This document shows, piece after piece, positions 12,851 to 33,164 of a DNA stretch of 36,582 nucleotides; the stretch's first letter is position 1; each line of letters starts with the position of its first letter. The stretch comes from Thermoplasmatota archaeon. GTDB lineage: Archaea; Thermoplasmatota; Thermoplasmata; SG8-5; JACRNV01. A model generated the notes under the pieces. The model was not told the origin of the DNA. It did not search any database and saw only the letters and a program-made list of their open reading frames with translations. Made by a program: the position numbers and the translations under genes. The stretch lies in assembly GCA_040753455.1 (NCBI GenBank), contig JBFMEL010000003.1:1-36582 (forward strand). Direction: 5' to 3'.

Positions 12851-12976
12851 TGAGCCCGCGGGGATTTCCGCACCTGCACGCAGGTTTTCGAACCCCGGAC
12901 CGCCTGGTTAAAAGCCAGACGCTCTATCTAGGGTGTGCGCTATGGCGCACATCCCACCTAGCTGAGCTACGGGCCC
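12851..12976 (-). tRNA. tRNA-Lys(UUU) with two non-canonical introns (20/21 and 59/60)
   Basis: Acceptor GGGCCCG/CGGGCTC, D stem GCTC/GAGC, anticodon arm TCTGG-CTTTTAA-CCAGG, T stem CGGGG/CCCCG. Removing 12926-12955 (30 nt) and 12865-12886 (22 nt) restores AGCTAGGTAGAGC and TTCGAAT. CCA is not encoded. Confidence 0.92.
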
Positions 12977-13088: not shown

Positions 13089-14633
13089 TCACCCCCGCCT
13101 CACCTGATAGACCACGTCTATGACCGTGCCGTCCCTGTAGGCGATGATGGCGACGATGCGATCCGTGAATGCGGGCTGTGGGGGGCAGCCCCCCGCCTTC
13201 TCCTCCGCGCGCTTGGCCAGGTCCTGAATGTCCACCACTTTGAGCCCTGCCTCTTTCGCAGCCTCCAGGATGTCATCGCGCATCGGATTCACAGCGATCC
13301 CCTCCTCCGTCACCACCGCATCTATCGTTTCCCCGGGGGTGGTGACGTTTGTGACCCTGCGCACTACGATGGGCCAGCTCTTGCGGTGCGTGGGGCAAGC
13401 GATGATGCACAGCCCAGCGCCAGCCGCCACATCCTGGTGACCGCCTATGCCGTGCAGCAGGTAGCCATCCGAATGCGTGCTCACGTTCACGTTGAAGTCT
13501 ATGTCCACCTCCGTGGCGCTGAGGAACGCCAGGTCCAGCATCTTCACCAATTGCCCTCTGTTGAACGGGTTGGCATAGAAATCAGGCTCGATCTCGAAGT
13601 GCCCGTTCTCCGTGCGCAGGCTCTCCACGCTCTCCAGATCGAAGCTCTGCGTGTTAAGGATCATCTCCACCAGTCCCTCGCGCAGCATGCGCACGATCTG
13701 GCTGGTGATCCCCCCATGGACGAACCTTGCCCTCACCCCTTTCCCGCGCATCGCCTCGATCAGGCAGTCGATGGCTGCGAGGGATATGCCGCCAGCCCCG
13801 GCTTGAAACGACATGCCGTTCCTTACCACGCCGCAGGCGTCCGCCAGCGCCACAGCGCTCCTCGCGATCCCGAGCCTCTCAGTGTCTGTCGTGCGCTCCG
13901 TGGTGCCCGAGGAGATCCCCTTAGGATCACCGATCGCTGGCACCTGCACCACCCAGTCCGTGTAGACCTGCGGGATGATCGGCGGGAGCACAGGATACGG
14001 CGCAAGGTTGTCCGTGACCACGACCACGTTCCTGGCATACCGCGCATCTGCCAGTGCGTATCCGAGGGGTCCGCATGCAGACCTTCCATACCTTCCGTTC
14101 GCGTTTCCGTATCGGTCCGCGATCGGTGCAGCGATGAAGGCTGTATCTATTCGCAGTGCGCCGGTATGTATCGCGCGCACCCTGCTGCCGTGCGATCTCA
14201 GCACCGCCACGTCGTCCATCTTTCCTTCTGAAACTACACGACCCACTGGACCGTTGATGCTGCCCTCGATCGATGCTATGGTGCCGTTCTCGATCATTTT
14301 CACGATGGGTTCGTGCACAGGGAACAGAGCGCTCTGAGCGAGCTTCAGACCCTTTAAACCGCGCCTGGCAGCCTCCTCCATCGCCATGTTGAGCACGTAA
14401 TCCCCATTCCTCAGGTGGTGGTGGAACGATAGGCATGCGCCGTGCGTGATCCCAGCGAGCTCGAAGACCTCCGGTATGCTGCCGACCAGCTTGTCTGTGC
14501 CGTAGTCGCTCGGCTTCAGCGGCAGGGGGACCTTCCAGCCCCTGGGGAAGCGCTCGTATGCCCCCTTGAAGGGCACGAGGTGCCTCCCGCGCACGAGGGT
14601 CGGGATCTCGCGCCCCACTGCGTTCTCAGGCAT
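13089..14633 (-). CDS. citF: Citrate lyase alpha subunit / citrate CoA-transferase family (copy 1)
   Basis: NAVGREIP, SFHHHLRNGD, RSHG.R, FQAGAGG, ATEVDIDFNVNV, GGHQD and YRDGTVID motifs. Confidence 0.92.
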   Translation of the reverse strand: MPENAVGREIPTLVRGRHLVPFKGAYERFPRGWKVPLPLKPSDYGTDKLVGSIPEVFELAGITHGACLSFHHHLRNGDYVLNMAMEEAARRGLKGLKLAQSALFPVHEPIVKMIENGTIASIEGSINGPVGRVVSEGKMDDVAVLRSHGSRVRAIHTGALRIDTAFIAAPIADRYGNANGRYGRSACGPLGYALADARYARNVVVVTDNLAPYPVLPPIIPQVYTDWVVQVPAIGDPKGISSGTTERTTDTERLGIARSAVALADACGVVRNGMSFQAGAGGISLAAIDCLIEAMRGKGVRARFVHGGITSQIVRMLREGLVEMILNTQSFDLESVESLRTENGHFEIEPDFYANPFNRGQLVKMLDLAFLSATEVDIDFNVNVSTHSDGYLLHGIGGHQDVAAGAGLCIIACPTHRKSWPIVVRRVTNVTTPGETIDAVVTEEGIAVNPMRDDILEAAKEAGLKVVDIQDLAKRAEEKAGGCPPQPAFTDRIVAIIAYRDGTVIDVVYQVRRG

Positions 14634-14642
14634 CCTTTCACC

Positions 14643-15170
14643 CTACCTGCTGCCCTTCCTAGCTTTGACGATCTCGAAATCTATGAAGTCGCAGTGGTGG
14701 ATGAGCACAGCCTCAGGGATGCGCTCGACCATCTCTCCTTCCTTAGAGTGCGCAGCGATGATGTGCACCATCTCGTCGGGCATGCCCACGATCATCGCGA
14801 GCCCAGCGCCAGATACAGGGTGCCGAAGGATCCTTCCATGGGGGCTCTTGACCACCACACCCCCCTGTCTAGTAAACTCGAGCAGCTTGCCGACGTCGTG
14901 CAGCAGCGCTCCAGCGATCACCAGGTCCATCCTGAGATCCCCCCGGGTTTCCGCTACGGCGATCGCCTGCCTCGTGACCATGCGTGTATGTGCTACGAGG
15001 GTCTCGCTGACCTCACCTGCGAGCAGGGTGAAGGGGATGTTGTCCAGTGTTTCCCAGCCCCCGCGCTTCATCGCCTCGACCCATACCTGGGCTGTCTGCC
15101 TTCGCAGCACAGCGTCCTTGATCCTCTCCATCTCAGGAAACGTCTTCTCGATGTACCCCACGCTGGTCAT
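14643..15170 (-). CDS. HD/HDIG-domain metal-dependent phosphohydrolase
   Basis: LVAH...LLHDVGK...RHPVSG...IIAAH...HHCD metal ligands. Confidence 0.85.
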   Translation of the reverse strand: MTSVGYIEKTFPEMERIKDAVLRRQTAQVWVEAMKRGGWETLDNIPFTLLAGEVSETLVAHTRMVTRQAIAVAETRGDLRMDLVIAGALLHDVGKLLEFTRQGGVVVKSPHGRILRHPVSGAGLAMIVGMPDEMVHIIAAHSKEGEMVERIPEAVLIHHCDFIDFEIVKARKGSR

Positions 15171-15961
15171 CCGCGTCCCTCCTGGAGGTCCCTCTCTGCA
15201 GGACCGTCATACTCGCAGTGCGCGATGGCGACGCGCCTCATCGGCTTGTACCTTTGTGTCTCCTCGTACACATGCGCCACGAGCCCTGCAGAGCGCCCTA
15301 TGAGAAAGAACCCTTTCCCCACGCGCCAGTCGAACCCCATATCCGAGATCACAGCCGCGATCGCGCCGTCCACGTTCAGGGGCAGCGCCTTTCCCCCTTC
15401 CCCCAGCGCCATCTCGATCCCCTGCGCTACAGCGATGTGATCGCCAGCGATCCCCAGTTCATGGGCTAGGGAGAGCAGGCGGGCAGTCCTGGGGTCTGCG
15501 GTGTGCAGCCGATGCCCATAGCCAGGGATGCGCTCCTTCCTCGCCTTTTTTTCTGTGACAGCAGCCTTCGCAGCCTCGGCAGGGGCAGTGCCTCTGGCAC
15601 GCATCTCTTGTACTGCCTCCTGCAGCAGCCGGGCGCACTGCTCTATAGCACCGCCATGCGCATCCCCTATGGAGAGCAGCCCTGCCGCCACCGCCGTGGG
15701 CAGCGGCACACCCCCCGAGGCGACGATCCGAGCAGCGAGAGCGCTCGGGGGCGTCACGCCATGATCTATCGACGCCGCAAGGATCGCGTCGATCATCCTC
15801 TCCTGCGCATCAGTAGGTAGCTCGCCCTTCAACAGCAGATGGACCAGACCTGCGAACGACACCCTCCCTATCAGGTCATCCTGCCTGTATCCCTTCGTGA
15901 CGATCTTGTTCTGAGAGGCATGGGTGATGGAGGTGCCCCAGAGCTCTTCCGTCATCCTCAT
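15167..15961 (-). CDS. Citryl-CoA lyase (Ccl; citrate synthase-like fold)
   Basis: W.TSIT, GYRQDDLIG, DHGVTPPS, HGGAIE, IPGYGHRLH..DPR, LNVDGA and RSAGLVAH motifs; the ~264-aa length is typical of Ccl rather than citrate synthase. Confidence 0.85.
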   Translation of the reverse strand: MRMTEELWGTSITHASQNKIVTKGYRQDDLIGRVSFAGLVHLLLKGELPTDAQERMIDAILAASIDHGVTPPSALAARIVASGGVPLPTAVAAGLLSIGDAHGGAIEQCARLLQEAVQEMRARGTAPAEAAKAAVTEKKARKERIPGYGHRLHTADPRTARLLSLAHELGIAGDHIAVAQGIEMALGEGGKALPLNVDGAIAAVISDMGFDWRVGKGFFLIGRSAGLVAHVYEETQRYKPMRRVAIAHCEYDGPAERDLQEGRG

Positions 15962-17505
15962 CCCTCCTCCACCTGGCGCACCACATCCGTCACGGTGCCA
16001 TCCCTGTACTCTATGATCCCGACGATCTTCCTGCCCCAGTGGAGCTGGTCGGGCTTCCCGGTCATGCCATACGCTGCATCGCGCAGTGCTTCGATAGTGC
16101 ACAGCTTCACCCCCCCGCTCCTGAGCTTCTCGATGATCTCCCTGCGCCTGGGGTTGACCGCCACCCCATGGTCGGTGACGACGATGTCCACCGTATCCCC
16201 TGGCGTGGTGACAGTGGTCACCGCATCCCTCAGAATCGGCACACGTTTCCTTACGATCGGCGTGATGATGAACGTCACCCTCGAACCTGCGGCTGCGTCT
16301 GCATGCCCGCCTGTCCCGTGCAGCAGTATCCCATCCGAGTGCGTGTTGACGTTCACGTTGAAATCCACATCCACCTCCGTCGCTCCCATGAAACAGGTGT
16401 CGAGCATGTGCGTCACGCAGCCCTTGGAATGCGGGTTGCCGAAGTGATAGTGCGAGATCTCCACATGGTTCGGATCCTCCCGTAGAGAGTTGATGGCAGG
16501 AATATCGAACGCCTGGGCATCGAGGATCTTGCGCACGGTGCCTTCGTGCAGCATCTCCACCACCAGCCCTGTGATCCCACCCACCGCGAAGTGTCCTGTG
16601 AGCCCCCTGTCCTTCATCCGCTCATGGAGATACTTCACGACTGCTAGCGTTGTGCCACCAGCCCCTGCCTGAAACATCAGCCCCTCCTTGATGAGCCCTG
16701 CTGCCTCCATCATATCGATGACATCGCTGGCCAGCTTTAATCTGGCGGGGTCTGTGGTGATCTCAGTGGTGCCAGAGGCAATCCCCTCAGGGTCGCCGAT
16801 CTTGTCCACCTGCACCACGTAGTCCACGCGGTGCTCCGGGATGCTGATCGGTGTGCATGGATAGTCCACTATGTTGTCGGTGATGATCACCACCTTCCTG
16901 GCGTACCAGGAGTCTGCGATCGCGAACCCCATCGGACCGAACATCCCCCTGCCCAGCACGCCGTTGCAGTTCCCCTGACCGTCAGAGGCAGAGGCTGCAA
17001 GGAACGCCACATCGATCTCGAGCTCTCCGCACTCGAGCGCCCGGGTGCGCCCCCCATGGCTGCGTATGACCACCGGCGTGGTGAGCGGGTGCTTGGAGAC
17101 GTAGTGCCCTACAGGACCGTTCAAGTTTCCCTCGATCCTGGTGACCACACCGCTCTTGATGTGCTCCACGATCGGCTCGTGTATCGGGAACATCGAGCTG
17201 TGCCCCATCCTGAGGTTCTTGATCCCCTTGGCAGCGATCGCATCGAGCACCTGGAGGATCACGTGATCCCCGTTCCTCAGGTGATGGTGGAAGGAGATCG
17301 TCATGCCATCCTTCAGACCCACGAGGTCTATCGCTTTTTCTAAGGAGCCCAGGAGCTTATCCGCCCCGGGTCCGGAGTGGACAATATGCTGCGCTATCCT
17401 CATCTTTTTCGGCTCTGGCGGTGAAGCCCACGCGCCCATGAAGGGTCTCAGCCTGCGCCCTGGCACCCTTTGGGGTATCTCTCTGCCTACAGCATTCCTG
17501 ACCAT
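15958..17505 (-). CDS. citF: Citrate lyase alpha subunit / citrate CoA-transferase family (copy 2, divergent)
   Basis: NAVGREIP, ISFHHHLRNGD, RSHGGR, FQAGAGG, ATEVDVDFNVNV, GGHAD and EYRDGTVTD motifs. Confidence 0.92.
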   Translation of the reverse strand: MVRNAVGREIPQRVPGRRLRPFMGAWASPPEPKKMRIAQHIVHSGPGADKLLGSLEKAIDLVGLKDGMTISFHHHLRNGDHVILQVLDAIAAKGIKNLRMGHSSMFPIHEPIVEHIKSGVVTRIEGNLNGPVGHYVSKHPLTTPVVIRSHGGRTRALECGELEIDVAFLAASASDGQGNCNGVLGRGMFGPMGFAIADSWYARKVVIITDNIVDYPCTPISIPEHRVDYVVQVDKIGDPEGIASGTTEITTDPARLKLASDVIDMMEAAGLIKEGLMFQAGAGGTTLAVVKYLHERMKDRGLTGHFAVGGITGLVVEMLHEGTVRKILDAQAFDIPAINSLREDPNHVEISHYHFGNPHSKGCVTHMLDTCFMGATEVDVDFNVNVNTHSDGILLHGTGGHADAAAGSRVTFIITPIVRKRVPILRDAVTTVTTPGDTVDIVVTDHGVAVNPRRREIIEKLRSGGVKLCTIEALRDAAYGMTGKPDQLHWGRKIVGIIEYRDGTVTDVVRQVEEG

Positions 17506-17598
17506 GAAACGCCCCCTTTGCAGGGGGCAACTAAAAGTGGAGGATAAAGGTTTTGGATGCGTGCCACAGCGGGAAACGCATCGGTACACTGGGGAGCG

Positions 17599-18504
17599 CT
17601 AGCTCAGGGAAGACCTGTCCACGATCTCCAGTATCTCTGTGCCATAGGAGGTGAGCCGCGCCTCACCGATGCCGTATATCCTGGAAAGCTCGTAGGCGCT
17701 GGTAGGCCTCTTCGCTGCAATCTCCCGCAGCGTGCGGTTCTCCATGACCAGGTATTTTGGGCGTGTTCCAGCCTTTGCATCCCTCCATTCCCTCAGGGCT
17801 CTCAGGATCTCCTCGGAGCACAGCGGCTCCCCTGGTGCATTGGAGAGCGTGCGGATCGCTTCGAGCCCGTCCTCGGTGATCCCGAGGGTCGGGTATCCAT
17901 CGTTCTCCCTCACATCCAGGAACCGCAGCTCGATGAGCTCCTCGATGCATCCTATGACCTCCTTCAACGGCTTGCGGCTCAGCGCGCCGTAGAGCCCGAT
18001 CGTCCAGAGCCTGAGGGAGAGGATGCGCCTGGATGCAGAGCCTGTGAGTATCCTTGCGATCGTGGTCTTTCCATACCTTCCGTTCGCCTGCTTCACGCAC
18101 TGCAGCACCGCCTGCTCCATCCCAAGCGCCTCTACAGGCACGTGAATCCCGTGCATCCCTTCCACCCTGGAGAAGGTGACCAAGATCTCTCGTCCGTCCT
18201 TGGCAAGGGCAGAGACCTCTATCTCCGCGTCCGCCATATTCCTGGCGATGGCGATGTCCGCTCCATCGTCTATGTAGCAGACAGGCTTAATCCCCTTCTG
18301 CGCAGAGTGGACTATGATGCTGCCCGCCGGGCGCACCAGGACCACGTGGTTCCCAGAGAACTCCTTCTCCACATCACCGTATCTGAAGAAGCCCTCGCAC
18401 ATCCCCGCGACCACTATCATCTCCAAGGCGTTCTCTATGCTTGCGCTCGTGGCGTTCGTCTTCTCGGCGGGTGCCACATCCCCGCCCTTTGCGTCGTTTT
18501 TCAT
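17599..18504 (-). CDS. Fusion protein: NucS/EndoMS N-terminal-like domain + RQC winged helix + HRDC
   Basis: VLVRPAGSIIVHS..GIKPVCY (NucS-N-like); LQCV....GRYGKTTIARILTGS...YGAL...YPTLGIT (RQC); LREWR...YLVMENRTLREIA.KRPTS..EL..IYGIGE....YG..IL (HRDC). SD GGAGG precedes ATG 18504. Confidence 0.8.
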   Translation of the reverse strand: MKNDAKGGDVAPAEKTNATSASIENALEMIVVAGMCEGFFRYGDVEKEFSGNHVVLVRPAGSIIVHSAQKGIKPVCYIDDGADIAIARNMADAEIEVSALAKDGREILVTFSRVEGMHGIHVPVEALGMEQAVLQCVKQANGRYGKTTIARILTGSASRRILSLRLWTIGLYGALSRKPLKEVIGCIEELIELRFLDVRENDGYPTLGITEDGLEAIRTLSNAPGEPLCSEEILRALREWRDAKAGTRPKYLVMENRTLREIAAKRPTSAYELSRIYGIGEARLTSYGTEILEIVDRSSLS

Positions 18505-18654
18505 GCGTTTACCTCCTGCTGTCTTCTTTGATCGGCACTTGCAGGCAGATGCCGACGAGCCGCGCACCCCCTCGGAGTATATCAACCTAAGGGGGGGAGG
18601 TGGGTGAAAGTACTGCGCCCGACAGCAGCATCCTCGGAGCCTCAGACTAGGGAC

Positions 18655-18872: not shown

Positions 18873-19346
18873 ATGACCAGGGTTTCTGTGAGGGAAATGA
18901 GGGCGGAGGACATCTCTCAGGCTGCAGCGATCCACAGGAGGATCACGAGGAGCGGGATGATCGCAGGAAAGGAATACCCGATCCACAAGCTATTCACGGC
19001 GTATCTCAAGCATACCCCAAAGACCTGCATGGTGGCGGAGATCGATGGGACAGTGGTCGGCTTCATAGTCGGAGAGATGAGGGAGTGGAGCTTCGGAGCC
19101 CAGCGCACAGGCTGGATCGAGATCGTCGAGGTGGATCCGCGGCACATGGGCGCGGGGATCGGCAGGATGCTGGGCAGGCGGATCATAGAGCATTTCAAGG
19201 GTATAGGGGCGGAGAGCGTGCACACAGCGGTGGCATGGGACTCGGGAGACCTGCTCTCCTTCTTCAAGGGGCTGGGGTTCGAGCGCAGCGCCCTCATCAA
19301 TCTCGAGAGGAGGATTGCAAGGAAGAGTGGAGCGCGGAGGCGATGA
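18873..19346 (+). CDS. GNAT-family acyltransferase
   Basis: VAEIDGTVVGFI, motif A VDPRHMGAGIG and FFKGLGF; SD GAGGTG. Confidence 0.9.
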   Translation: MTRVSVREMRAEDISQAAAIHRRITRSGMIAGKEYPIHKLFTAYLKHTPKTCMVAEIDGTVVGFIVGEMREWSFGAQRTGWIEIVEVDPRHMGAGIGRMLGRRIIEHFKGIGAESVHTAVAWDSGDLLSFFKGLGFERSALINLERRIARKSGARRR

Positions 19347-19347
19347 T

Positions 19348-20478
19348 ATGGAAGCCTTGAAGAGATTCGTGGATATCTATGAGCACAGACACGAGTATGC
19401 CAAGGGATGGAAGGAACGCACTGGCGGCAAGGTGATGGGATACTTCTGCACCTATGTGCCTGAGGAGATCCTGCATGCTGCCGGCGTGCTGCCCATACGG
19501 ATCCTCGGGAGCCACGAACCGCAGAACGTCACAGAGCCGCACATCTTCGGGATGTTCTGTCCCTTCTGCAGGGATGTGCTTGCCCAGGCGCTGATGGGGC
19601 GCTACGATTATCTCGATGGCATCATGATCGCGCAATCCTGCCTGCACGTGAGGCAGTCGTTCACGAGCTGGCAGAAGCACGTGCCAGTGGGATTCAGCTA
19701 CTATCTGCCGATGCCGCACAAGGTGCAGAGCCCTAGGTCGAGACCCTTCCTGAGGGCGGAACTCGCGCTCTTCAAAGAGAAGATCGAGGATTGGACAGGG
19801 AGAAAGATCACGGATGAAGCGCTGGACAGCTCCATCGCTGTCTACAATCGGTTCAGGGCGCTGATGCGCCAGCTCTACGATCTCAGAAAAGCCGATGCCC
19901 CTCCCATCACTGGAACAGAGGCGATGTACATCTCTGCCGCCGTGCAGATGATGGACAAGACCGAGGCAAGCGACTGCTTAGAGCAGCTGCTTGCAGCCCT
20001 GCACCAGAGGCAGGCACCAAGGGAGGGCACGCGCCTCATGATCATCGGCTCGGAGAACGACGATACTGGGCTCTTGAGGATGATCGAGGGCTGCGGCTCT
20101 ACGATTGTAACCGATGATCACTGCACGGGCAGCAGGTATTTCTGGAACTCGGTGGAGAATGGAAAGGACAGGCTGCAGGCGATCGCGGACAGGTACATTG
20201 ACAGGCCCAGATGCCCCACCAAGGACTGGGAGGAGAGGGAAAGGCTGCCCCACATCCTGAATCTGGCGAGGGAGTGGAATGTGCAGGGAGCGGTGCTGCT
20301 GCAGCAGAAGTTCTGCGACCCGCACGAGCTCGACATGCCAGCGATCAAGCAGCACCTGGAGAAGAACGGGATCAAGACCCTGTTCCTGGAGATGGATGTC
20401 ACAGTCCCCATCGGTCAGTTCAGGATCAGGACAGAGGCGTTCCTGGAGGAGTTCGGCTTGGAGGACGACCTGTTTTAG
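19348..20478 (+). CDS. bzdN: Benzoyl-CoA reductase, Bzd-type, subunit N
   Basis: [27 protein letters not shown] and QKFCDPH motifs of the HgdAB/BCR family; N-O-P-Q-M gene order. Confidence 0.88.
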
Positions 20479-20489
20479 GAGGTGCGAAG

Positions 20490-21794
20490 TTGGCAGAAAA
20501 CAAATATCCCACGGAACCCCTGAGGTGCTGGGAAAAGGCAAAGAAGATCAGGATGGACTACTACAAGGGCTTCGCAGAGGCGCGTGAGAGAGGGGGGCTG
20601 AGATGGGCAGGCGGTGCCTGGTCCTTCGACGCGATCCCTGCAGGGCTGGGCGATGATGTCTATCCGCTTACTGGCGAGCCCTACGGCGCAAGCACAGCGT
20701 TCAACAAGGAGCAATCGCTCAAGTGCCTCGAAGCCACGGAGAAGGCGGGCTGGGCAAGGGACCTCTGCTCCTACATGAGGAACTACTGGGGATCGATCAT
20801 CTTGGACGAATATACGTTCGGAGGCAGGTTCCCCAAGCCTGATTTCCTCTGGCAGGACCACATATGCTGCTCGCACGCAAAATGGTACCAGGTCGCCAGG
20901 GAGCTGGAAGGTGGGAAGGTCCCGTACTTCTGCATCGATGTGGCTGCAGGTCCAGAAGATGAAATCACGGAGCACGGGATCGAGTATCTCGTGGGCCAGA
21001 TGCACGATGGCATAGAATGGCTCGAGAACGTCACAGGGCGCAAGTACAACGACAACATGCTGATCAAGGCTGTGTACAACGAGTGCAGGGCCACCAGCAC
21101 ATGGGCAGAGATATGCTGCCTCAACAAGCAGATCCCTGCCACCTTGGACGAGAAGACGATGTATTCCCTGTACGTGCTTGGGACATTGAAGAAGCACAGC
21201 CAGGAGGTCGCTGATTTTTACGAGGAGCTCAGGGACGAGATGAAGGACAGGGTGGCAAGGGGCATAGCTGCGATACCCAACGAGCGCTGCAGGGTGATGA
21301 CAGACACCCAGCCTCCATGGGGCTTCCTCAACGTCTTCAGGTACATGGAGAAATATGGATGCGTCTCTGTGGGCAGCCTGTACACCTTTGCGCTGATCGG
21401 CGCATGGGAGGTGAAGCCCGACGGCACATGGGGTCCGAGGACCACACCACAGCAGAGAGGGATCACTATAAAAGACAGGGACCAAGCCCTCAGGGTACTG
21501 GCGGAATGGAACCTCCACAAGCCCGAGTGGCAGCACTTCTACTCCTGCCATCTCAAGAGCGAGATGATGGTGCGCATCGCGAGGGAATGGAGCCTGAGCG
21601 GTGTAATGCTGCACTACAACAGGGGGTGCGAGGGCTTGAGCCTGGGGATCGCAGAGAACCGCCTAGCCCTCCTGGAGGCAGGCTTTCCAGTCATGGTCTT
21701 CGAGGGGAACATGGGGGACGAGCGCGAGTTCGATGAGGCAAGGACGATGGCGCGCATCGACACCTTCATGGAAACCCTCGGGATAAAGAAATAG
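20490..21794 (+). CDS. bzdO: Benzoyl-CoA reductase, Bzd-type, subunit O (TTG start)
   Basis: [43 protein letters not shown] and [11 protein letters not shown] motifs; SD GGAGGTG. Confidence 0.9.
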
Positions 21795-21805
21795 ATGGTG
21801 ATCTG

Positions 21806-22588
21806 ATGCTGACCGCAGGTATAGATATGGGTGCGAAGAACATCAAGGTCGTGCTCCTTCGCGGGGATAGAACGATCGCGGCAAAGGCTCTGGTCCCCGC
21901 AGGACTCGAAGCCAGGGCGAACGCTGAGAAGGCGCTTCAGAAGGCACTCGAAACCGCGGGTGCGAGCATTGATGAGATCGCATATGTTGTGGCTACAGGC
22001 GCCGGGCGCGAGGACGCACCCCATGCCAACGGTACGATCACGGAGGTTTCCGCGGATGTGAAAGGGATACTGTTCACCCATCCGACCGTGCGCACGGTGA
22101 TCGCCGTGGGTGCGGAGGAGGGAAGGGGCGTGAGGTGCGACGAGCACGGCAGGGTCATAGACTTCGCGGTGAACGAGAAGTGCGCAGCCGGGGCAGGGGC
22201 GTTCACAGAGGCGATGGCGCGCGCGCTCGAAGTCCCGCTCGAAGAGCTTGGACCCCTTTCCCTCAGGTCCACGCAGGCAGTGCCGATGAACGCGCAGTGC
22301 GTGGTCTTTGCAGAATCGGAGGTGGTGACGCTGGTGCATGCCCAGACTCCCAAGGAGGATATAGCGAGGGCTGTCCACGACGCGATCGCTGACAGGATCG
22401 TCTCGATGGTGCGCAAGGTAGGGTTCGAGAAGGATATCGCCATAGTGGGCGGCATGGCGCACAACCCAGGGTTCGTGCAGGCTGTCAAAAGAGATTTGGA
22501 GAGCGATGTGATCATCCCCGATGACCCGATGTACGTGGGCGCGCTCGGCGCCGCGCTGCATGCCGCAGAGAGGGCAGGAGGTGGATGA
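21806..22588 (+). CDS. bzdP: Benzoyl-CoA reductase ATP-binding (ASKHA activase) subunit P
   Basis: AGIDMG, ATGAGR, NEKCAAGAGAF and QCVVFAESE motifs. Confidence 0.88.
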   Translation: MLTAGIDMGAKNIKVVLLRGDRTIAAKALVPAGLEARANAEKALQKALETAGASIDEIAYVVATGAGREDAPHANGTITEVSADVKGILFTHPTVRTVIAVGAEEGRGVRCDEHGRVIDFAVNEKCAAGAGAFTEAMARALEVPLEELGPLSLRSTQAVPMNAQCVVFAESEVVTLVHAQTPKEDIARAVHDAIADRIVSMVRKVGFEKDIAIVGGMAHNPGFVQAVKRDLESDVIIPDDPMYVGALGAALHAAERAGGG

Positions 22589-22589
22589 G

Positions 22590-23459
22590 ATGCCCGAGGA
22601 GTTCTGGCGCTGGACAGAATCGAGATGGACCTCCCCCGAGATCGATTGGAGGGCGGGGAAGATCATCTCTGCAGGCGTGGATGTAGGCTCTGTGAGCACG
22701 CAGGCTGTGGTGATGGTGGATGGGAAGCTGTACTGCTACAGCAACATGAGGACCGGCTCCAGCAGCCCAGACAGCGCCAATAAGGCGATGGCATGGGCGC
22801 TCGAAGGCACGGGGCTGGAGATAGCGAACCTTCATTACACCGTGGGCACAGGCTATGGCAGGGTGAACGTGCCGTTCTCGCAAAGAGCAATTACAGAGAT
22901 CGCATGCCATGCGCGTGGAGCAAATTTTATGTACGGTCCCAGCGTGAGGACAGTGCTGGACATGGGCGGGCAGGACTGCAAAGCGATCCGCTGCGACGAG
23001 AAGGGGAAGGTGATGAACTTCCGCATGAACGACAAGTGCGCTGCAGGCACGGGTCGCGGCATGGAGGTCTTCGCGGACCTGCTCTCTCTGCCCATTACCC
23101 AGGTGGGTGAGCTCTCGCTGGATGTGGATGTCGAGCCCCCGCCTGTCAGCAGCACATGCGTGGTCTTTGCAAAGTCCGAGGCTACGGGACTCCTGCGCAA
23201 GGGCTGGCCAAAGAACAAGGTGCTGGCAGCCTACTGCTCTGCAATGGCGCACCGCATCGCCACCCTCTTAGAGCAGATAGGGATAGAGAAGGAGTTTGCG
23301 ATCACAGGCGGGATCGCGAAGAACATAGGGGTGGTGCAGAGGCTGGAGAAGGAGATAGGGATCAAGGCTCTCAAACCAGAGCTCGACACGCAGATCGCAG
23401 GCGCGATCGGTGCAGCGCTCTTCGCAAAGGCGCTGGCAGAGAAGGAGAAAAAAGGATGA
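22590..23459 (+). CDS. bzdQ: Benzoyl-CoA reductase ATP-binding subunit Q
   Basis: N-terminal EFWRW.E, GVDVGSVS, GTGYGRV, DMGGQDCK, NDKCAAGTGRG and SSTCVVFAKSE motifs. Confidence 0.9.
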   Translation: MPEEFWRWTESRWTSPEIDWRAGKIISAGVDVGSVSTQAVVMVDGKLYCYSNMRTGSSSPDSANKAMAWALEGTGLEIANLHYTVGTGYGRVNVPFSQRAITEIACHARGANFMYGPSVRTVLDMGGQDCKAIRCDEKGKVMNFRMNDKCAAGTGRGMEVFADLLSLPITQVGELSLDVDVEPPPVSSTCVVFAKSEATGLLRKGWPKNKVLAAYCSAMAHRIATLLEQIGIEKEFAITGGIAKNIGVVQRLEKEIGIKALKPELDTQIAGAIGAALFAKALAEKEKKG

Positions 23460-23743
23460 AAGCCAGCTATGGCTACACTGACGGCTCAGGGGGATACTAC
23501 ATCATCGTGGACACGGAGCAGTGCACAGCATGCGGGTTGTGCGTCCAGGCATGCAGATGGGGCGTGATGGAGGTGGGCGAGGACGAGCACGACCCGCTCA
23601 GCGATCGTTTAGTTGCTAAGGTCTCCGAGGCTCACAGGAAGAAGATAAAATATTCCTGCGCGCAGTGCAAGCCCGCCTCCAAGCAGATCATACCGCCATG
23701 CATATCCTCATGCGCCCCCAAGGCAATAGAGCACAGCTGGTGA
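23456..23743 (+). CDS. bzdM: BzdM-like ferredoxin
   Basis: YGYTDGSG.YYI, CTACGLCVQAC and KYSCAQCKP...PCISSC...IEHSW; ATGA overlap with bzdQ. Confidence 0.85.
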   Translation: MKASYGYTDGSGGYYIIVDTEQCTACGLCVQACRWGVMEVGEDEHDPLSDRLVAKVSEAHRKKIKYSCAQCKPASKQIIPPCISSCAPKAIEHSW

Positions 23744-23761
23744 GCGCTCCATGGAGGGGTG

Positions 23762-24244
23762 ATGGGTTCGAATGTCCGGGATGTAGTAAGGGGGGCAATA
23801 GCCCGCAGGGGGGCAGCCCCGATCCAGATCCTGCAGGATGTGCAGCAGGCGCTCGGCTACGTGCCCGAGATCGCTGTCGATATGATGGCTGAGGAGCTGG
23901 AGATCCCTGCCACGCAGATATACGGGATACTGACGTTCTATGCCCAGTTCAGGCTTGCGCCCCCTGGGAAGCATTCGCTGAGGGTGTGCCAGGGCACTGC
24001 CTGCCATGTGATGGGCAGCGAGCGCATCCTGGACTATCTCCAGGGCGTCTTGGGCGTTGGCGTGGGCGAGACCACTGAGGACAGGCGCTTCACACTCGAG
24101 CGCGTGGCATGCGTCGGCTGCTGCGGCATGGCGCCCGTGGTCGTGTTAGATGGAGTGCCACATGGCAATATGAGCATCCGCGCTGTCGAAGCGCTCATAG
24201 GCGCGTATGGTAAGAGCGCTCACGGGCATAGTGCTGAGGTTTGA
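23762..24244 (+). CDS. NuoE/HydC-like [2Fe-2S] subunit
   Basis: ILQDVQ...GY, TFYAQF, CQGTAC and CVGCCGMAP motifs. Confidence 0.92.
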   Translation: MGSNVRDVVRGAIARRGAAPIQILQDVQQALGYVPEIAVDMMAEELEIPATQIYGILTFYAQFRLAPPGKHSLRVCQGTACHVMGSERILDYLQGVLGVGVGETTEDRRFTLERVACVGCCGMAPVVVLDGVPHGNMSIRAVEALIGAYGKSAHGHSAEV

Positions 24245-24393
24245 GAAGGGGCGCTGGTGGGCTTGGGAAACCAACTTCGCAGAGGTGTAGGGAAAATAGA
24301 TATAGGGGGTCGGGGATAGGGACTCGTGAAGGCTATGAACGGCAGCAGAGAGGTACGTCAACCCGAGATCTGGAGTATATGAGGAATGAAAAC

Positions 24394-24684
24394 ATGGAAA
24401 GAAAAAAGCACATAGACATTTGCATACGGCATTTATTCTGTATACTGTTAATACTAGCTTTATTTTGTTTTTTTATTTTACTACCTAATAAAAGATTTGT
24501 ATTTGGCTCAATTCTTGTCTTATTGACATCTCTTTATGTTATAAACTTATGGTTCGATCACCAGATTCGGCAAAAACAGTTAGATTATAAATTATATATT
24601 AAGAAACGAGTTTTGATTACAGTTATTGTAGCTATTATATTTTTAGTCGTAGCAACATTAATAATTTACTGGTACGGAGGATGA
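24394..24684 (+). CDS. Small AT-rich membrane protein (about 3 TM helices)
   Basis: Three hydrophobic stretches; GAGG upstream; AT-rich codon usage unlike the flanking genes. Confidence 0.6.
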   Translation: MERKKHIDICIRHLFCILLILALFCFFILLPNKRFVFGSILVLLTSLYVINLWFDHQIRQKQLDYKLYIKKRVLITVIVAIIFLVVATLIIYWYGG

Positions 24685-24751
24685 AATAACCTTGAACGTA
24701 GTATGTAATGTTTCTGTTTCCCAAATTTATGAGAAAAAAGAAGAGGAAAAA

Positions 24752-25142
24752 ATGTCAAACAAAAAATTAGTTGTATTAGGCATGACTGTAGCCTTAGCGA
24801 TAGCAACATTAATCCAGACCTCAATGATTGTGGTGGCACTGCCGCCCACAGTGACTTACCACAGTCCCACTGGATCGACCGCACCAGTGAGTTCCTACAT
24901 TGAGGTTGCATTTGACAAAATTATGAATCATGCAAGGATTAGGAGGTGTATCCGTGGATGGTATGGGCTTTAATGTTGGGTTAATAGGCACCTCAGAAAT
25001 TCTAAAGGATCCGTTCGATGAGATCACTACTCCAATCACTGCTTTCACTGCAGGATTTTTAAATGGTGTCTGTCTCTTCGTAGACGGTGTAGGCATAATC
25101 CAAAATACTGAAACTATGTTGGCTGGACTTGCAGGTGGTTAA
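24752..25142 (+). pseudogene. Chimeric remnant: signal peptide + Ig-domain start, then an out-of-frame Gly-rich hydrophobic C-terminal fragment
   Basis: MSNKKLVVLG...LPPTVTYHSPTGSTAPVSSYIEVAFDKIMNH matches the N-terminus of 25785-28685. Similarity stops at 24931, and another frame (24930-25142) then reads QGLGGVSVDG...MLAGLAGG*. Confidence 0.6.
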
Positions 25143-25964
25143 ACAGATGAGAATGAACAATGATTTTGGAAGACTATTATACGCTCCTAACAAATATAGG
25201 GAACCCCATGAAGCGAAAAAACATGCGATGAGATTATTTCGTACAGTGTTTTTTCTTACGCTTGGACTTTATCTCTTTCTAATAATCTTAGATATAATCA
25301 ATGGATTCAATTTCGAATCCTCATTATCATTTTATTTTGTTCTACTTCTCGGTTTTTCTGTTATTTGGGTTATGTTATTTGTGTGGTATTTAGTATTTCA
25401 AAAAACGAATTGGTCAGCGATTTTTGAAAAGGGAATAGCCCCTCCTATGATTCCTCTAAAATATGCTAAAGAGGGGAAGAGATTTATACCATATCAAGAA
25501 ATAGAAAGAATCACTATCAAAAGAGACGAAGTGGTGGATTACTATGGAAAAAAGCATTGCTGGCACTTTGTCTTTCACCTAAAAGATGGTGTACAAGTAG
25601 ATATGTTTCGTTCATCATTAATGACTCACGACACAGAAGAAAATATTGAGCGAGAATATCAGATATTAAAATATATTATGGACCACCTTGATGAAAAAGT
25701 AGAGTTTACAGCAGAAGAAATCGGAGTTCAACCAATGAGTGAAGATTTTTATAGGGATTTTGTTACCGATAAAGAGGAGTGCTGATGAATAAAAGAAAGG
25801 TTATAACCGCAACTCTACTTATTATTATGATTGCAACAGTCTCAATCCAGACATCGATGATTGCCGCGGCGCTGCCGCCCACAGTGACTTACCACAGTCC
25901 TACTGGATCGACCGCCCCAGTGAGTTCCTACATTGAGGTTGCATTTGACAAAATTATGAATCAT
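24839..25964 (+). repeat. 93-bp direct repeat (24839-24931 and 25872-25964), 2 mismatches
   Basis: CTGCCGCCCACAGTGACTTACCACAGTCC(C/T)ACTGGATCGACCGC(A/C)CCAGTGAG...ATTATGAATCAT read in both places. Confidence 0.95.
25147..25785 (+). CDS. Membrane protein, 2 TM helices plus a PH-like soluble domain
   Basis: Two TM segments followed by IFEKGI...FIPYQEIERI (bacterial PH-like pattern); AT-rich; TGATG-coupled to the next gene. Confidence 0.7.
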   Translation: MRMNNDFGRLLYAPNKYREPHEAKKHAMRLFRTVFFLTLGLYLFLIILDIINGFNFESSLSFYFVLLLGFSVIWVMLFVWYLVFQKTNWSAIFEKGIAPPMIPLKYAKEGKRFIPYQEIERITIKRDEVVDYYGKKHCWHFVFHLKDGVQVDMFRSSLMTHDTEENIEREYQILKYIMDHLDEKVEFTAEEIGVQPMSEDFYRDFVTDKEEC

Positions 25965-28685
25965 ACTTCATTGGAGGCGGCGTTTTCGATTACCCCTTTT
26001 GTAAGCGGAACATTCTTTTTCGAAGTAGAACCCACAACTTCATTGGTATACATCCCAGATTCTGATCTCGCATATGGCACGACTTACAATGTTAGTATAA
26101 ATGGAAGTGTAGCAAAGGACCAGGCTGGAGAGTTCTTAGATGGAGATGGAGACGGAATAGCAGAGGGGAGTCCAATCGATGATTACAGTTGGGAGTTCAC
26201 CACGGAACTACCAGATACAACACCACCCACAGTTACTACAGCGAATCCAACAGGAACAGATGTGTCGATCACCTCAATAATCACAATTTCATTCAACGAA
26301 AGCATGAATCAAAGCTCTGTTGAAGCAGCATTTTCAATATTTCCACCGATTGGGGGAAACTTTTCATGGGGAGAAGAGCTTGGTGTCAACACGGTGGGTT
26401 TCTATCCCTTAACCAACCTAGCAACAAGTACAACATATAATGTAACAATTAATGCCAGTATCGCAAAGGACATAAATGGGAATTACTTAGATGGTAATGG
26501 TAATAGCACTGCAGAGGGATCACCAACTGATGATTATACCTGGAATTTCACAACAGAAGCCGTGGATTTGATACCGCCTAATGTGACTTATGCGTCTCCA
26601 GTCAGCATAAATATCAATGTGGCAAGCAATATAATCATTAGGTTTAGTGAATATATGAACCATACTTCTGTTGAGGAGGCCTTTCTATTATCTCCATCGG
26701 TCATCGGTACATTCTCGGAAGTGGATTCTTATGGAGAGACAACACTAACTTTTGACCCGGATACTAATTTGGCCTATGGCACAACTTACAATGTTAGTAT
26801 AAATGGAAGTATCGCTAAAGATCTAGCGGAAAATTATCTTGACGGGAACAAAAATGGAACCTCAGAAGGTAGCCCGGTAGACGACTATAACTGGTCATTT
26901 ACTACTAAACCGCCGGATGTTACACCACCTACAATAACATTCTCGACACCAACTGGAATTAATGTGCCTGTCAATACAAACATAACTATCAAGTTTAGTG
27001 AATTTGTAAACTACACATCTGTAGAAATTGCCTTTACCATTTTTCCTAGTGGGACGGGAACATTTGTATTTGAGGATGAGGGAATTACATATATGGTTTT
27101 TGACCCCGATATAGCTCTTTCATATGGAACAACATATCACATCACCTTGAATGCTAGTGTAGCAAAGGACCTATTTGGAAACTATTTAGATGGAAATGGA
27201 AACGGAATAGCAGAGGGGAGTTCAACCGATGATTACAGGTGGGAATTCACTACAGAACAAGAATCCATCCCCCCGACTGTTATATCTCATTCGTCTACAG
27301 GATCCGGGGTTCTCGTTTCGACCAATATTACTATTCTGTTCAGTGAATCTATGAACAAGACCTCTGTAGAACAGGCCTTCAATTGCACGCCGTACATTTC
27401 TGGAACATTTAATTGGAACGGAAACAACAATGTGAGTTTTGTACCTGATATGGAGCTTGAATATAATACCACATACAACATAACCTTGAACTCAAGTATC
27501 GCTAAAGACAGCTCTGGAACTCTCCTAGATGGCAATAGCAATGGAACAGCAGACGGATCCCCAATTGATGACTATTCGTGGACTTTCAAGACAGAGCAAG
27601 CGCCGGACACTGCCCCACCCATTGTAATTGGCAACTCCCCTAAAGGTCTTGGCGTCAACGTGGCATCAATCATATCCATAACTTTCAGTGAATTGATGAG
27701 CCAAAGCTCTGTTGAGGCTGCATTTTCAATGTTTCCCGCTGTCTCGGGCTCGTTCAGTTGGAGTGGGAATATTTTCAGTTTCACTCCAACGGTGAATCTT
27801 TCTCATGATACAGCCTACTCGGTTATGGTTAACGGCTCTCTGGCAAAAGATCTTTCGGGCAACACCCTGGACGGTAACGGAAATGGCGTGGCACAGGGTT
27901 CGCCCGTTGACGACTTTGTCTGGACGTTCACCACAGTTCCAGACACGACAGCTCCAGCCGCTATCATGGATCTGGTTGCAACGCTGGGTCCTACCAATAG
28001 CGTCAATCTGACGTGGACGGCTCCAGGAGACGACGGTAACGTAGGAACGGCCACCAGCTACGACATAAGATATTCAACTGTCCCGATAAATGAGACCAAC
28101 TGGGCGAATGCTATATATGTAACCGGCGAGCCGACACCATCTGTTGCCGGCACTGTACAATGGATGTCCATTTCCGGGCTGACCGAAGGTTATACCTACT
28201 ACTTTGCAATGGTTGCATCGGATGAGGTGCCAAACCACTCCCCGCTGTCGAACGTCGCCAATGTAACCATCGAGGAGTCGGCGGACACAACGCCACCTGC
28301 GGCCCCGACTGGGCTGGCGGCTACCACCGAGACTACCGGCATCAGGGTAGCCTGGAGCGCGGTCGCGGACGCAAGCTTCTATTCGATCTACCGGAGCACG
28401 GACGGCGTCGCCTTCGAGCTGCTAGCTAACGTCACTGCCACTTCGTATCTAGACACCGCCGGTCTGGTGAGCGGCACGACATACTATTACATAGTGACAG
28501 CGATTGACGCCGCTGGCAACGAATCCCCGAACTCTACCACCGCGCACGCGACGTGGACTGTGCCGTCGCCGGACGATGGAAGTGATTACACGATCGTAAT
28601 CGTTGTAATCGCAATAGGATTAATCCTAGGCGCAATCGTAGGCTCCAAACTTCTCAGGCACAGGAAGGGCGGGAAGACCGAATAA
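25785..28685 (+). CDS. Cell-surface protein: signal peptide, 6 Ig-like (Big_5/SbsA-type) repeats, 2 FN3-like domains, C-terminal TM anchor
   Basis: Six units PP.V....P...F...MN..SVE.AF...LDGN.NG...GSP.DDY.W.FTT, then LTWTAPGDDG...YDIRYS, PPAAPTGL...YYYIVTAID.AGNES, a hydrophobic helix and a basic tail. Confidence 0.9.
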   Translation: MNKRKVITATLLIIMIATVSIQTSMIAAALPPTVTYHSPTGSTAPVSSYIEVAFDKIMNHTSLEAAFSITPFVSGTFFFEVEPTTSLVYIPDSDLAYGTTYNVSINGSVAKDQAGEFLDGDGDGIAEGSPIDDYSWEFTTELPDTTPPTVTTANPTGTDVSITSIITISFNESMNQSSVEAAFSIFPPIGGNFSWGEELGVNTVGFYPLTNLATSTTYNVTINASIAKDINGNYLDGNGNSTAEGSPTDDYTWNFTTEAVDLIPPNVTYASPVSININVASNIIIRFSEYMNHTSVEEAFLLSPSVIGTFSEVDSYGETTLTFDPDTNLAYGTTYNVSINGSIAKDLAENYLDGNKNGTSEGSPVDDYNWSFTTKPPDVTPPTITFSTPTGINVPVNTNITIKFSEFVNYTSVEIAFTIFPSGTGTFVFEDEGITYMVFDPDIALSYGTTYHITLNASVAKDLFGNYLDGNGNGIAEGSSTDDYRWEFTTEQESIPPTVISHSSTGSGVLVSTNITILFSESMNKTSVEQAFNCTPYISGTFNWNGNNNVSFVPDMELEYNTTYNITLNSSIAKDSSGTLLDGNSNGTADGSPIDDYSWTFKTEQAPDTAPPIVIGNSPKGLGVNVASIISITFSELMSQSSVEAAFSMFPAVSGSFSWSGNIFSFTPTVNLSHDTAYSVMVNGSLAKDLSGNTLDGNGNGVAQGSPVDDFVWTFTTVPDTTAPAAIMDLVATLGPTNSVNLTWTAPGDDGNVGTATSYDIRYSTVPINETNWANAIYVTGEPTPSVAGTVQWMSISGLTEGYTYYFAMVASDEVPNHSPLSNVANVTIEESADTTPPAAPTGLAATTETTGIRVAWSAVADASFYSIYRSTDGVAFELLANVTATSYLDTAGLVSGTTYYYIVTAIDAAGNESPNSTTAHATWTVPSPDDGSDYTIVIVVIAIGLILGAIVGSKLLRHRKGGKTE

Positions 28686-28732
28686 CACGCGGAGAACAGC
28701 CTCTGAGGTAGAGTCGAATAAACTCGAATCCC

Positions 28733-29590: not shown

Positions 29591-29637
29591 AAAGATGCAA
29601 AAGAAACAAAAGAAAAGTTTTTGCATCCCTTGTTTCT
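29591..29637. promoter_or_regulatory. Repeat/inverted-repeat operator-like array upstream of the ATPase gene
   Basis: AAAGATGCA-AAAGAAACA-AAAGAAAAG 9-bp tandem units, followed by inverted TTTTGCATC and TTGTTTCT. Confidence 0.5.
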
Positions 29638-29653
29638 ATTGGTCGTGATATCC

Positions 29654-30805
29654 ATGGCTAACCCGTTCATGCGTTCCACGGGCAATCCGCCGAGAAAGTT
29701 CGTTGGCAGGGAGTTGGAACTGTCGGAGTTGATGCGTGCGCTTGATCATACCAAAGCAGGGATGCCAGAGCACACGATTATGTTCGGGCAGTTCGGCATC
29801 GGGAAGACCTCGCTACTCATCGAGTTCCGAGCGCGCGCAAAAGACGTATATGCTGTCAGGATACCGTTGTTCGCCACCGGCGATATATCGGAGATATGCG
29901 ACATTGTGCTGAGAGAGGCAAGAAGTCAGCTCGATCTCAAACCGCAAAAATTGAGGGGTCGCTTGGTCCAATTCGGGTTCACCGTCTTCGGTACTGGCGC
30001 GAGCCTCACCCTCGGCAAAGTGCAAATGAATCCCCAGTCCGCGCTCAAGGAGATCCTAGCCACGATCCATCACCAACTTCCTGAGGGGTCCACGCTGGTC
30101 CTGATGCTCGACGATCTCCACCGCATCACAGGCGAAGGAGGGATGGACGCTAGGAAGGTCTTCACCGTGCTGAGCAATGTGCTCCTTCAATTGAACCAAG
30201 ATAAAAGAAAAATAATGTTCGTGGGCACAGGTTCCCACGACATCCTCAGGATTATTCGCGCACACGACGAAGCGAGCGTTCGAATATTCCACCCGCAGGA
30301 GGTCCCGCCGCTGTCGCTTGAAGAGACACGCGCTGTAATTCGGGAACATGCTAAAGAGGAGGGGGCGGAGTTCTCTGAGGAGGTAATCACCAAGATTCAC
30401 GAGCTGTCTGAAGGCATCCCATACTACATACACATACTGAGTTATTACTGTTTTGAAGCGCGAGAAGACTCGCAAGTGCGCTCGAACGCCTTCGAGCGAG
30501 GCTTTCCGCGGGCATTGAACGACCTGGCAGAAAAAGAGTTCGAAACGATGTACAAAGGTATTAGCAATGGAGCCAAAAGGGTGCTCGCTGCCATGGTGGA
30601 ATCAAGAAAGAGAACGTTGCGCTACAGTGAGATAAAGAGGCTTGCGGGCAGTGAGGTCTCGGTATATCTGAGTGAATTGAACGAGAAAAATCTTATTGTG
30701 AAGGACGGGCGCGGGAAGTACAGAGCTCGGGACAGGTTATTTGCGGAATACCTGCACTCGCACAAGCCGTATATGAGAAACGGAACCATAGAGGGGCGAG
30801 AATGA
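29654..30805 (+). CDS. Archaeal AAA/STAND ATPase with C-terminal winged-helix domain
   Basis: NPF....FVGRE.E, Walker A GQFGIGKT, Walker B LMLDD, EGIPYY and C-terminal L.EL.EKNLI.K.GRGKY...D.LF motifs. Confidence 0.88.
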   Translation: MANPFMRSTGNPPRKFVGRELELSELMRALDHTKAGMPEHTIMFGQFGIGKTSLLIEFRARAKDVYAVRIPLFATGDISEICDIVLREARSQLDLKPQKLRGRLVQFGFTVFGTGASLTLGKVQMNPQSALKEILATIHHQLPEGSTLVLMLDDLHRITGEGGMDARKVFTVLSNVLLQLNQDKRKIMFVGTGSHDILRIIRAHDEASVRIFHPQEVPPLSLEETRAVIREHAKEEGAEFSEEVITKIHELSEGIPYYIHILSYYCFEAREDSQVRSNAFERGFPRALNDLAEKEFETMYKGISNGAKRVLAAMVESRKRTLRYSEIKRLAGSEVSVYLSELNEKNLIVKDGRGKYRARDRLFAEYLHSHKPYMRNGTIEGRE

Positions 30806-33160: not shown

Positions 33161-33164
33161 GAAC

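Follow-up and report, generated by a model that had tools for sequence, protein, structure and literature searches.

In the 36,582-nucleotide stretch of DNA analyzed here (the window; contig JBFMEL010000003.1 of the Thermoplasmatota archaeon assembly GCA_040753455.1), four genes on the minus strand, citF1, ccl, an HD-domain gene, and citF2, form an operon that we consider somewhat likelier than otherwise to encode a citrate lyase working without ATP and without a carrier protein. The enzyme would act on free coenzyme A (CoA) esters in vivo, take citrate as its substrate, and run in the direction of cleavage. This reading draws on the gene content of the operon, the orthology of its products, synteny among relatives, distributions complementary to those of CitD/CitE and of citryl-CoA synthetase (Ccs), and a lysine signature in the CitF proteins. 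The original prediction had proposed a hybrid route free of ATP and of acyl-carrier protein (ACP), in which acetyl-CoA and citrate give citryl-CoA and then oxaloacetate and acetyl-CoA, and this route is supported by the gene absences, the match of the citryl-CoA lyase (Ccl) to the structure 6HXP, and the survey of gene neighborhoods.

According to the introduction of an earlier report (PMC9813914), CitF-family enzymes take CoA esters in vitro and naturally use ACPs. In the proposed mechanism, CitF would convert acetyl-CoA and citrate to acetate and (3S)-citryl-CoA, and Ccl, judging by its orthology, would split citryl-CoA into acetyl-CoA and oxaloacetate. The net reaction would be citrate to oxaloacetate and acetate, and acetyl-CoA would be recycled, serving as a cofactor that is catalytic and diffusible. 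Ccl would take the place of CitE, and free CoA that of CitD and its prosthetic group, so that CitC, CitG, and CitX would not be needed. Citryl-CoA is labile, and in the ACP enzyme the corresponding re-priming is done by CitC. Here, an acetyl-CoA synthetase, encoded on another contig (C44) of the same genome and, in the sister genome G001, immediately after the operon, could re-prime the cycle by restoring the thioester lost through hydrolysis of citryl-CoA.

The operon and its encoded proteins

Reading of the sequence and its translations placed the four genes head to tail: citF1 (17505–15958), for a predicted citrate CoA-transferase of the citrate lyase alpha type (515 residues); ccl (15961–15167), for a predicted citryl-CoA lyase, a short protein of the citrate synthase family (264 residues); the HDIG/HD-domain gene (15170–14643), for a candidate metalloprotein (175 residues); and citF2 (14633–13089), for a second citrate CoA-transferase paralogue (514 residues). 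The TGA stop of citF1 overlaps the start of ccl as ATGA, with a second in-frame ATG of ccl 6 nt inward, at 15955; the ccl stop overlaps the HD start in the same way; and 9 nt separate the HD stop from citF2. These coordinates agree with the earlier description of four coupled genes, two of whose junctions are ATGA overlaps and the third a 9-nt gap. A GGAGG-like motif precedes both ccl and the HD gene, and the G+C content near the operon (0.60–0.62) is the same as that of the contig. Related genomes contain this set of genes again, so the operon is more than a chance arrangement. A search for public sequencing runs that contain the operon listed none.

Both CitF proteins exceed the cut-off of the citF equivalog model TIGR01584 (501 bits), CitF1 with 585 bits and CitF2 with 523 bits, and both match PF04223 (E = 1.7e-158 and 4.7e-142, respectively). 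They are 48% identical to each other over their full length, as expected from the claim of two full-length, divergent CitFs, and 42–47% identical to bacterial CitF. The structures nearest to CitF1 are the structural-genomics CitF entries 2HJ0 and 1XR4, with 484 bits to 2hj0_A over residues 1–514. All 64 invariant columns of an alignment of 30 CitFs are retained in both proteins, including GAGG at 281–284 and E377/D379. By the curated cut-off, CitF1 and CitF2 thus belong to the citrate lyase alpha-type CoA-transferase family, and transferase activity is predicted for them. As first suggested, the two might also form a heteromer.

Ccl scored 303 bits with the citryl-CoA lyase model NF004866 (cut-off 245), and its PF00285 match is confined to profile positions 165–355, the C-terminal half of the citrate synthase profile. 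Its residues 5–260 align to residues 2–253 of the Hydrogenobacter thermophilus citryl-CoA lyase (6hxp_A, E = 1.8e-69). It had been recognized that the Ccl-like protein might prove to be a synthase; it matches 6HXP over the full length and is not a full-length synthase. Across 30 Ccl sequences, H150 and D198 never vary and conservation of H67 is at least 90%; we take these three residues to be the catalytic His/His/Asp of citrate synthase. The Ccl-like genes fall into two types, a short Ccl of about 260 residues that is at least 48% identical to the window Ccl and a form of about 350 residues, found in family f3, that is 35–40% identical to it. The HD protein matches PF01966 and TIGR00277 (HDIG); with these matches, and with Ccl above its cut-off, the identities originally given to the two proteins stand.

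Citrate lyase parts in the genome and its relatives

The window is contig C3 of a genome (G000) of 1.94 Mb in 174 contigs, estimated to be 93% complete. Searches with Pfam models, each of which matched in control genomes, found no citD (PF06857), citE (PF03328), citG (PF01874), citC (PF08218), or citX (PF03802) in this genome; the absence of these genes from the window, noted from the start, holds among all the window's open reading frames. The genome has two CitF genes only. Its citrate synthase family consists of this Ccl and AclA (contig C61), and its Ligase_CoA domains are limited to SucC, SucD, and AclA. The sole SucCD pair, with 547 bits (cut-off 370) and 429 bits (cut-off 336), scores as a true succinyl-CoA synthetase, and because of this, no separate Ccs is seen, in line with the ATP-free part of the route. 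Contig C61 carries sucC-sucD-aconitase-aclB-aclA, that is, an ATP-citrate lyase in the same genome, while the acetyl-CoA synthetase on C44 is AMP-forming and an isocitrate dehydrogenase lies on C16. The closest relatives of Ccl and CitF are from metagenome-assembled genomes of the Thermoplasmatota/Thermoplasmata.

The distribution of these genes was determined in a class sample of 201 genomes, with CitF scored above its cut-off and Ccl-like genes at E ≤ 1e-30 to the window Ccl. CitF was found in 41 genomes and a Ccl-like gene in 36, 27 of which also have CitF. CitD occurs in ten genomes, all of them CitF-positive, and CitD and a Ccl-like gene never occur together in the 201 genomes. Four CitF-positive genomes, 57–82% complete, have neither (G025, G047, G052, and G061). 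By coordinates, the Ccl-like gene adjoins CitF, or is separated from it by the HD gene only, in 26 of the 27 genomes that have both; the sole exception is G031, where the two genes lie on different short contigs.

These counts bear on the idea that CitF acts on a protein-bound thioester, using an unrecognized carrier or a CitD in the unassembled 7% of the genome. The estimated completeness leaves room for this, as does the fact that the absence was established with Pfam models only. Still, CitD did not turn up in any of the 27 class-sample genomes with both CitF and a Ccl-like gene, and it is found in all ten genomes that have CitF plus CitE or a CitD/E fusion (on separate contigs in G041). 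CitG, CitX, and CitC are also missing from the archaeon's own genome, and the operon, with gaps of 0–9 nt, could not accommodate another small gene. We regard a protein-bound thioester as very unlikely.

In the annotated neighborhoods, the order CitF1-Ccl-HD-CitF2 is found in the window and in G009, CitF1-Ccl-CitF2 in G004 and G007, Ccl-HD-CitF in G001 (with the acetyl-CoA synthetase next downstream) and G002, and CitF-Ccl in G048 and G057. Genomes of other families have the classical CitD-CitE-CitF (G022, G029, G033, and G032) or a version with a CitD/E fusion (G037). A separate scan for Ccl, with one genome per species, covered the best 80 of 225 relatives, which fall into 29 archaeal (Thermoplasmatota) and 51 bacterial loci. 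Of the archaeal loci, 27 have CitF as the gene immediately upstream of Ccl, and the other two end at a contig edge at most 140 nt from Ccl. The dominant archaeal order is HD-CitF-Ccl with a single CitF, and 22 of the archaeal loci carry HD. Among the best 80 of 225, CitF is next to Ccl in none of the 51 bacterial loci.

Nine bacterial loci, from WOR-3/Stahlbacteria and unclassified bacteria, have an HD homolog 52–58% identical to the window protein about 2.2–2.8 kb upstream of Ccl. By Pfam, two SucCD-like genes lie between HD and Ccl in L086 (WOR-3) and L092 (Stahlbacteria), and L088 (WOR-3), judged from gene lengths only, has the same arrangement as L086. In L086, and by gene lengths in L088, the SucCD-like genes are flanked by aconitase and isocitrate dehydrogenase genes, whereas L092 has an aconitase gene downstream of Ccl and neither an isocitrate dehydrogenase nor an aconitase gene upstream. 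The archaeon G129 has the order SucCD-like-Ccl-HD. Against the succinyl-CoA synthetase models, the SucCD-like pairs beside Ccl come out close to or under the cut-offs, and we read them as a putative Ccs. The upstream partner of Ccl is thus a ligase or CitF, and the partner of CitF is CitD/CitE or Ccl, a pattern that fits a working, citrate-cleaving pair of CitF and Ccl. The neighborhood survey suggested for this operon therefore returned a recurrent module that is an alternative to CitD/CitE.

Two other arrangements of Ccl-like genes were observed. In L131 and L137 (from G045 and G034, family f17), Ccl directly follows a CitMHS/Na_sulph_symp transporter of 541–559 residues, and neither CitF nor HD is present. 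L032 (G003:C6:6200-19800, family f3) is a dense CoA/citrate locus that encodes an AMP-binding ligase, a 428-residue ATP-grasp_2 protein, a 712-residue protein with a citrate synthase domain, a CitF with Asn at position 420, a 353-residue protein resembling citrate synthase, a fusion of acetyl-CoA hydrolase/transferase and GNAT, an ADP-forming acetyl-CoA synthetase, and a DRTGG protein; G003 also has a canonical aclB, away from this locus.

The same chemistry might have another role, either running towards citrate as a thioester-conserving citrate synthase or working together with ATP-citrate lyase. Oxaloacetate and acetyl-CoA would then give citryl-CoA, and citryl-CoA with acetate or another acid would give citrate and an acyl-CoA; the two CitFs could use different acids. 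In keeping with such a role, a search of the 22 genomes in the order to which the window belongs (G000–G021) yielded no canonical citrate synthase; the strongest PF00285 match among them reaches 156 bits against 290–476 bits for full-length synthases in other families. ATP-citrate lyase is present in 29 of the 201 genomes, and 25 of these 29 are CitF-positive. However, the equilibrium between citrate and acetate plus oxaloacetate lies on the side of cleavage at millimolar concentrations, and ATP-citrate lyase could itself supply citrate. We judge such an alternative role unlikely.

A scheme in which a reversed ATP-citrate lyase and CitF/Ccl together replace the ADP-forming acetyl-CoA synthetase was rejected, as the ATP-grasp_5 domain of that enzyme is found in 186 of the 201 genomes, including all of G001–G021. 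It was not found in the archaeon's own genome, probably due to the incompleteness of the assembly; five POR_N matches of 2-oxoacid:ferredoxin oxidoreductases were found there. One genome of the sample, G109, is flagged as unpublished; it has a canonical citrate synthase and no match to an ADP-forming acetyl-CoA synthetase, and no claim made here rests on it.

CitF lineages, position 420, and the HD protein

Five bacterial CitFs from annotated citCDEFXG loci, including those of Klebsiella pneumoniae, E. coli, and Enterococcus, served to root a tree of 52 CitFs. In this tree, CitF1 and CitF2 are old paralogues, each with orthologues in G004, G007, and G009, and the single CitF of G001 falls in the CitF2 clade. 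The archaeal CitFs partnered with CitD/E are basal and interleaved with those partnered with Ccl, so that the partner label changes four times on the tree.

Three alignment columns separate the CitFs partnered with Ccl or a citrate synthase-like protein from those partnered with CitD/E, and the cleanest is position 420 of CitF1. Lys occupies this column in 36 of the 37 CitFs partnered with Ccl or a citrate synthase-like protein, including both window CitFs. It is found in none of the ten CitD/E-partnered CitFs (five archaeal and five bacterial, K. pneumoniae and E. coli among them), which have Gly (seven), Ala, Tyr, or Asp (one each). The prosthetic group of ACP lacks the 3′-phosphate of CoA, and as a speculation, Lys-420 perhaps grips this phosphate in free CoA. 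Another column, position 363, has Ala, Ser, Asn, or Gly in ACP-type CitFs and Arg, Cys, Gln, Met, or Ser otherwise; the CitF1 clade has Cys here, the CitF2 clade Gln, and the HD-CitF-Ccl clade Arg.

The difference between CitF1 and CitF2 at position 363 (Cys versus Gln), a column that separates the CitF classes, together with the age of these paralogues, might indicate that at least one of them takes a substrate other than citrate, such as citramalate, methylcitrate, homocitrate, or malate. CitF homologs serve in citramalate lyase, as stated in the introduction of PMC9196870, and a bacterial citD-lyase-citF set lies beside methylaspartate mutase genes. Nevertheless, we think another substrate distinctly unlikely: Ccl matches a characterized citryl-CoA lyase and not the methylcitrate synthase model, Ccl and HD are found elsewhere beside aconitase, isocitrate dehydrogenase, and a CitMHS/DASS transporter, and both CitFs stand above the citF equivalog cut-off. 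The bacterial set in question, L146 of Peptoclostridium acidaminophilum (NZ_CP007453.1), consists of citC and of citD-'CoA ester lyase'-citF adjoining the methylaspartate mutase genes glmS and glmL. Its CitF has Ala in the position-420 column and Asp at 252, and the set is probably a citramalate lyase.

Several points weigh against a carrier-free citrate lyase that cleaves citrate. With one DASS query, no citrate transporter was found in the archaeon's own genome, and at 93% completeness citD or ccs could sit in the missing part. Since an ATP-citrate lyase is present in the same genome, a second citrate-cleaving system needs a physiological reason. The genomes compared are kin and not independent, so that the counts overstate the support. 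The lysine signature is not uniform either, as the citrate synthase-partnered CitF of G003 has Asn at position 420. On the tree, from which the signature columns were excluded, Lys-420 requires three changes, and only two of them are forced by the starred branches. Only three independent pairs are available, two in the same direction and one with no difference, and with this number no test of Lys-420 can reach significance. With two to three independent transitions behind it, the signal is in part, and could be largely, due to shared ancestry. Finally, G022 lacks a Ccl-like gene at E ≤ 1e-30, yet at L038 (G022:C19) it carries a Lys-type CitF with HD after it; the classical CitD-CitE-CitF of this genome lies elsewhere. 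By its sequence type, the L038 CitF would be an orphan of the ACP-free kind.

The HD protein accompanies CitF with either lyase partner: a homolog (E ≤ 1e-20) was found in 36 of the 41 CitF-positive genomes, compared to 6 of the 160 CitF-negative ones. H61, H91, D92, H117, H141, H159, and D161 are invariant among 30 sequences, and the ligand pattern is that of a predicted dinuclear HD site. Its predicted structure (predicted local distance difference test score of 94.8) retrieved generic HD folds only with Foldseek, the best being the YhaM HD domain (template modeling score of 0.69). The best sequence match in the PDB has an E value of 0.013, and the matching clusters of the protein atlas are named only 'HD domain'; neither these two comparisons nor Foldseek gave a subfamily or a substrate.

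Longer relatives of the HD protein (P0124–P0128) include a fusion to a full aconitase (P0125, 859 residues, five member sequences), three clusters fused to an aconitase-X swivel domain, and one fused to a LUD (LutC-like) domain. These fusions hint at a function tied to [4Fe-4S] dehydratases or to tricarboxylates. An apparent fusion of HD and citrate synthase, P0131, was discarded as a garbled gene model with a single member, in which a C-terminal piece of Ccl is followed by HD; it most likely reflects adjacent ccl and hd genes. Selenocysteine in HD homologs of family f12 was also rejected, since the flagged in-frame TGA is the natural stop, past which the alignment ran.

Taken further, the HD protein, the Lys-type CitF, and Ccl might together be an unrecognized three-part citrate lyase that is widespread in Thermoplasmatota, a reading we hold as tentative and rather doubtful. 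CitF would then be a true free-CoA transferase and the dinuclear HD protein a working part, and the system would be a living intermediate of citrate lyase, Ccs/Ccl, and ATP-citrate lyase that arose by module swapping around the citryl thioester.

Known citrate-cleaving systems and the surroundings of the operon

The classical citrate lyase of K. pneumoniae, E. coli, and enterococci, made of CitD, CitE, and CitF with CitC, CitG, and CitX, has its alpha subunit family in common with the operon, and its two-step chemistry and net reaction are those proposed here. In contrast, the operon and its genome lack CitD, the HpcH-type CitE, and the prosthetic-group genes, and the lyase is a Ccl of the citrate synthase fold. 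The window CitFs have Lys where the ACP-dependent CitFs have Gly, Ala, Tyr, or Asp, and the operon includes an HD gene, which is absent from the five bacterial citCDEFXG loci read.

The Ccs/Ccl system of Hydrogenobacter thermophilus, reportedly described by Aoshima et al. in 2004, has an orthologous Ccl (6HXP) and a free citryl-CoA intermediate such as the one proposed here. The same HD protein is found in the SucCD-like/Ccl operons of WOR-3/Stahlbacteria and of the archaeon G129. Here, however, acetyl-CoA would donate the CoA for citryl-CoA, in place of synthesis by an ATP-dependent SucCD-like ligase, and the products would be acetate and oxaloacetate, with no net gain of acetyl-CoA. ATP-citrate lyase (AclAB), which is co-resident on contig C61, also acts on citrate and has a Ccl-type lyase module. 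It spends ATP and yields acetyl-CoA, whereas the operon has no ATP-grasp or CoA-ligase domain.

The citramalate lyase of Clostridium tetanomorphum, a family II CoA-transferase complex, pairs a CitF-type transferase with a lyase, as does the operon, but that system is ACP-dependent and has a CitE-type lyase, according to the introduction of PMC9196870. For Thermoproteus tenax, citE, an acetyl-CoA synthetase, and a CoA-transferase were proposed to act in place of the missing citD and citF, according to a quotation in PMC1403158. This would likewise be a carrier-free archaeal citrate lyase on free CoA esters; there, however, CitE is present and CitF absent, the transferase is of another family, and the proposal was never shown.

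A full-text literature search, with most subscription journals and supplements outside its scope, found no paper that pairs CitF with a Ccl of the citrate synthase type. Within that search, the unproven T. tenax proposal (PMC1403158) is the nearest idea in print. We lean towards seeing the operon as enzyme families that are already known, put together in a new and recurrent way that does without the carrier protein. The public names of these proteins are generic, and CitF is named only 'citrate lyase subunit alpha', so that the set looks like an incomplete citrate lyase.

If the proposal is right, the operon would represent a further natural means of cleaving citrate beside CitDEF, ATP-citrate lyase, Ccs/Ccl, and reversed citrate synthase, in which two catalytic proteins suffice and no prosthetic group has to be matured. 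It would contradict the statement, made in PMC9813914, that CitF-family transferases 'naturally use acyl-carrier proteins'. The Ccl gene serves as a marker of the reductive tricarboxylic acid cycle (PMC9802188), a use that would mislead in Thermoplasmatota. The complementary distributions of CitD/E and Ccl, and of Ccs and CitF, illustrate in concrete terms an exchange of modules as citrate-cleaving enzymes evolved, and they also point to an uncharacterized family of HD proteins linked to the metabolism of citrate and aconitate.

Upstream of citF1, a GC-rich inverted repeat at 17511–17528 (7 bp, GCCCCCT/AGGGGGC, with a 4-nt spacer) ends 5 nt from the citF1 ATG and may be a 5′ leader structure or the terminator of the upstream gene. 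A second 7-bp inverted repeat, at 17556–17582, lies inside the 93-nt spacer between citF1 and the gene directly upstream of the operon. The latter (17599–18585, minus strand) encodes a stand-alone 328-residue protein with the RQC and HRDC domains of RecQ and no helicase core, and such a gene likewise lies upstream of Ccl-HD-CitF in G001. Downstream of the citF operon lies the archaeal RNA polymerase operon, in which rpoB is unsplit.

ARAGORN and Rfam reported no RNA genes in the window. A tRNA-Lys(UUU) that both missed lies between citF2 and rpoH, at about 12875–12975 on the minus strand, and was called by ARAGORN only after a 28–29-nt insert (about 12926–12954) was removed in silico. The insert sits in the D-arm, after tRNA position ~21, and the need to remove it for the call points to a non-canonical archaeal intron.

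On the other side of the RQC/HRDC gene, a divergent cluster on the plus strand (19315–24244) encodes two HGD-D proteins, two BcrAD/BadFG ATPases, a Fer4 protein, and a NuoE-like 2Fe-2S protein, and resembles benzoyl-CoA reductase or 2-hydroxyacyl-CoA dehydratase systems. A low-G+C island (0.40–0.43 compared to about 0.60) extends from about 24000 to 28700, with a 968-residue Big_5/fn3 surface protein, and is followed by STAND/AAA_16 ATPase genes (29621–31367). The island and these ATPase genes lie between the NuoE-like gene (23759) and the genes of NuoF-like and NuoG/GltD-like proteins (31364–35417). An IS110 transposase gene lies at 35579–36580.

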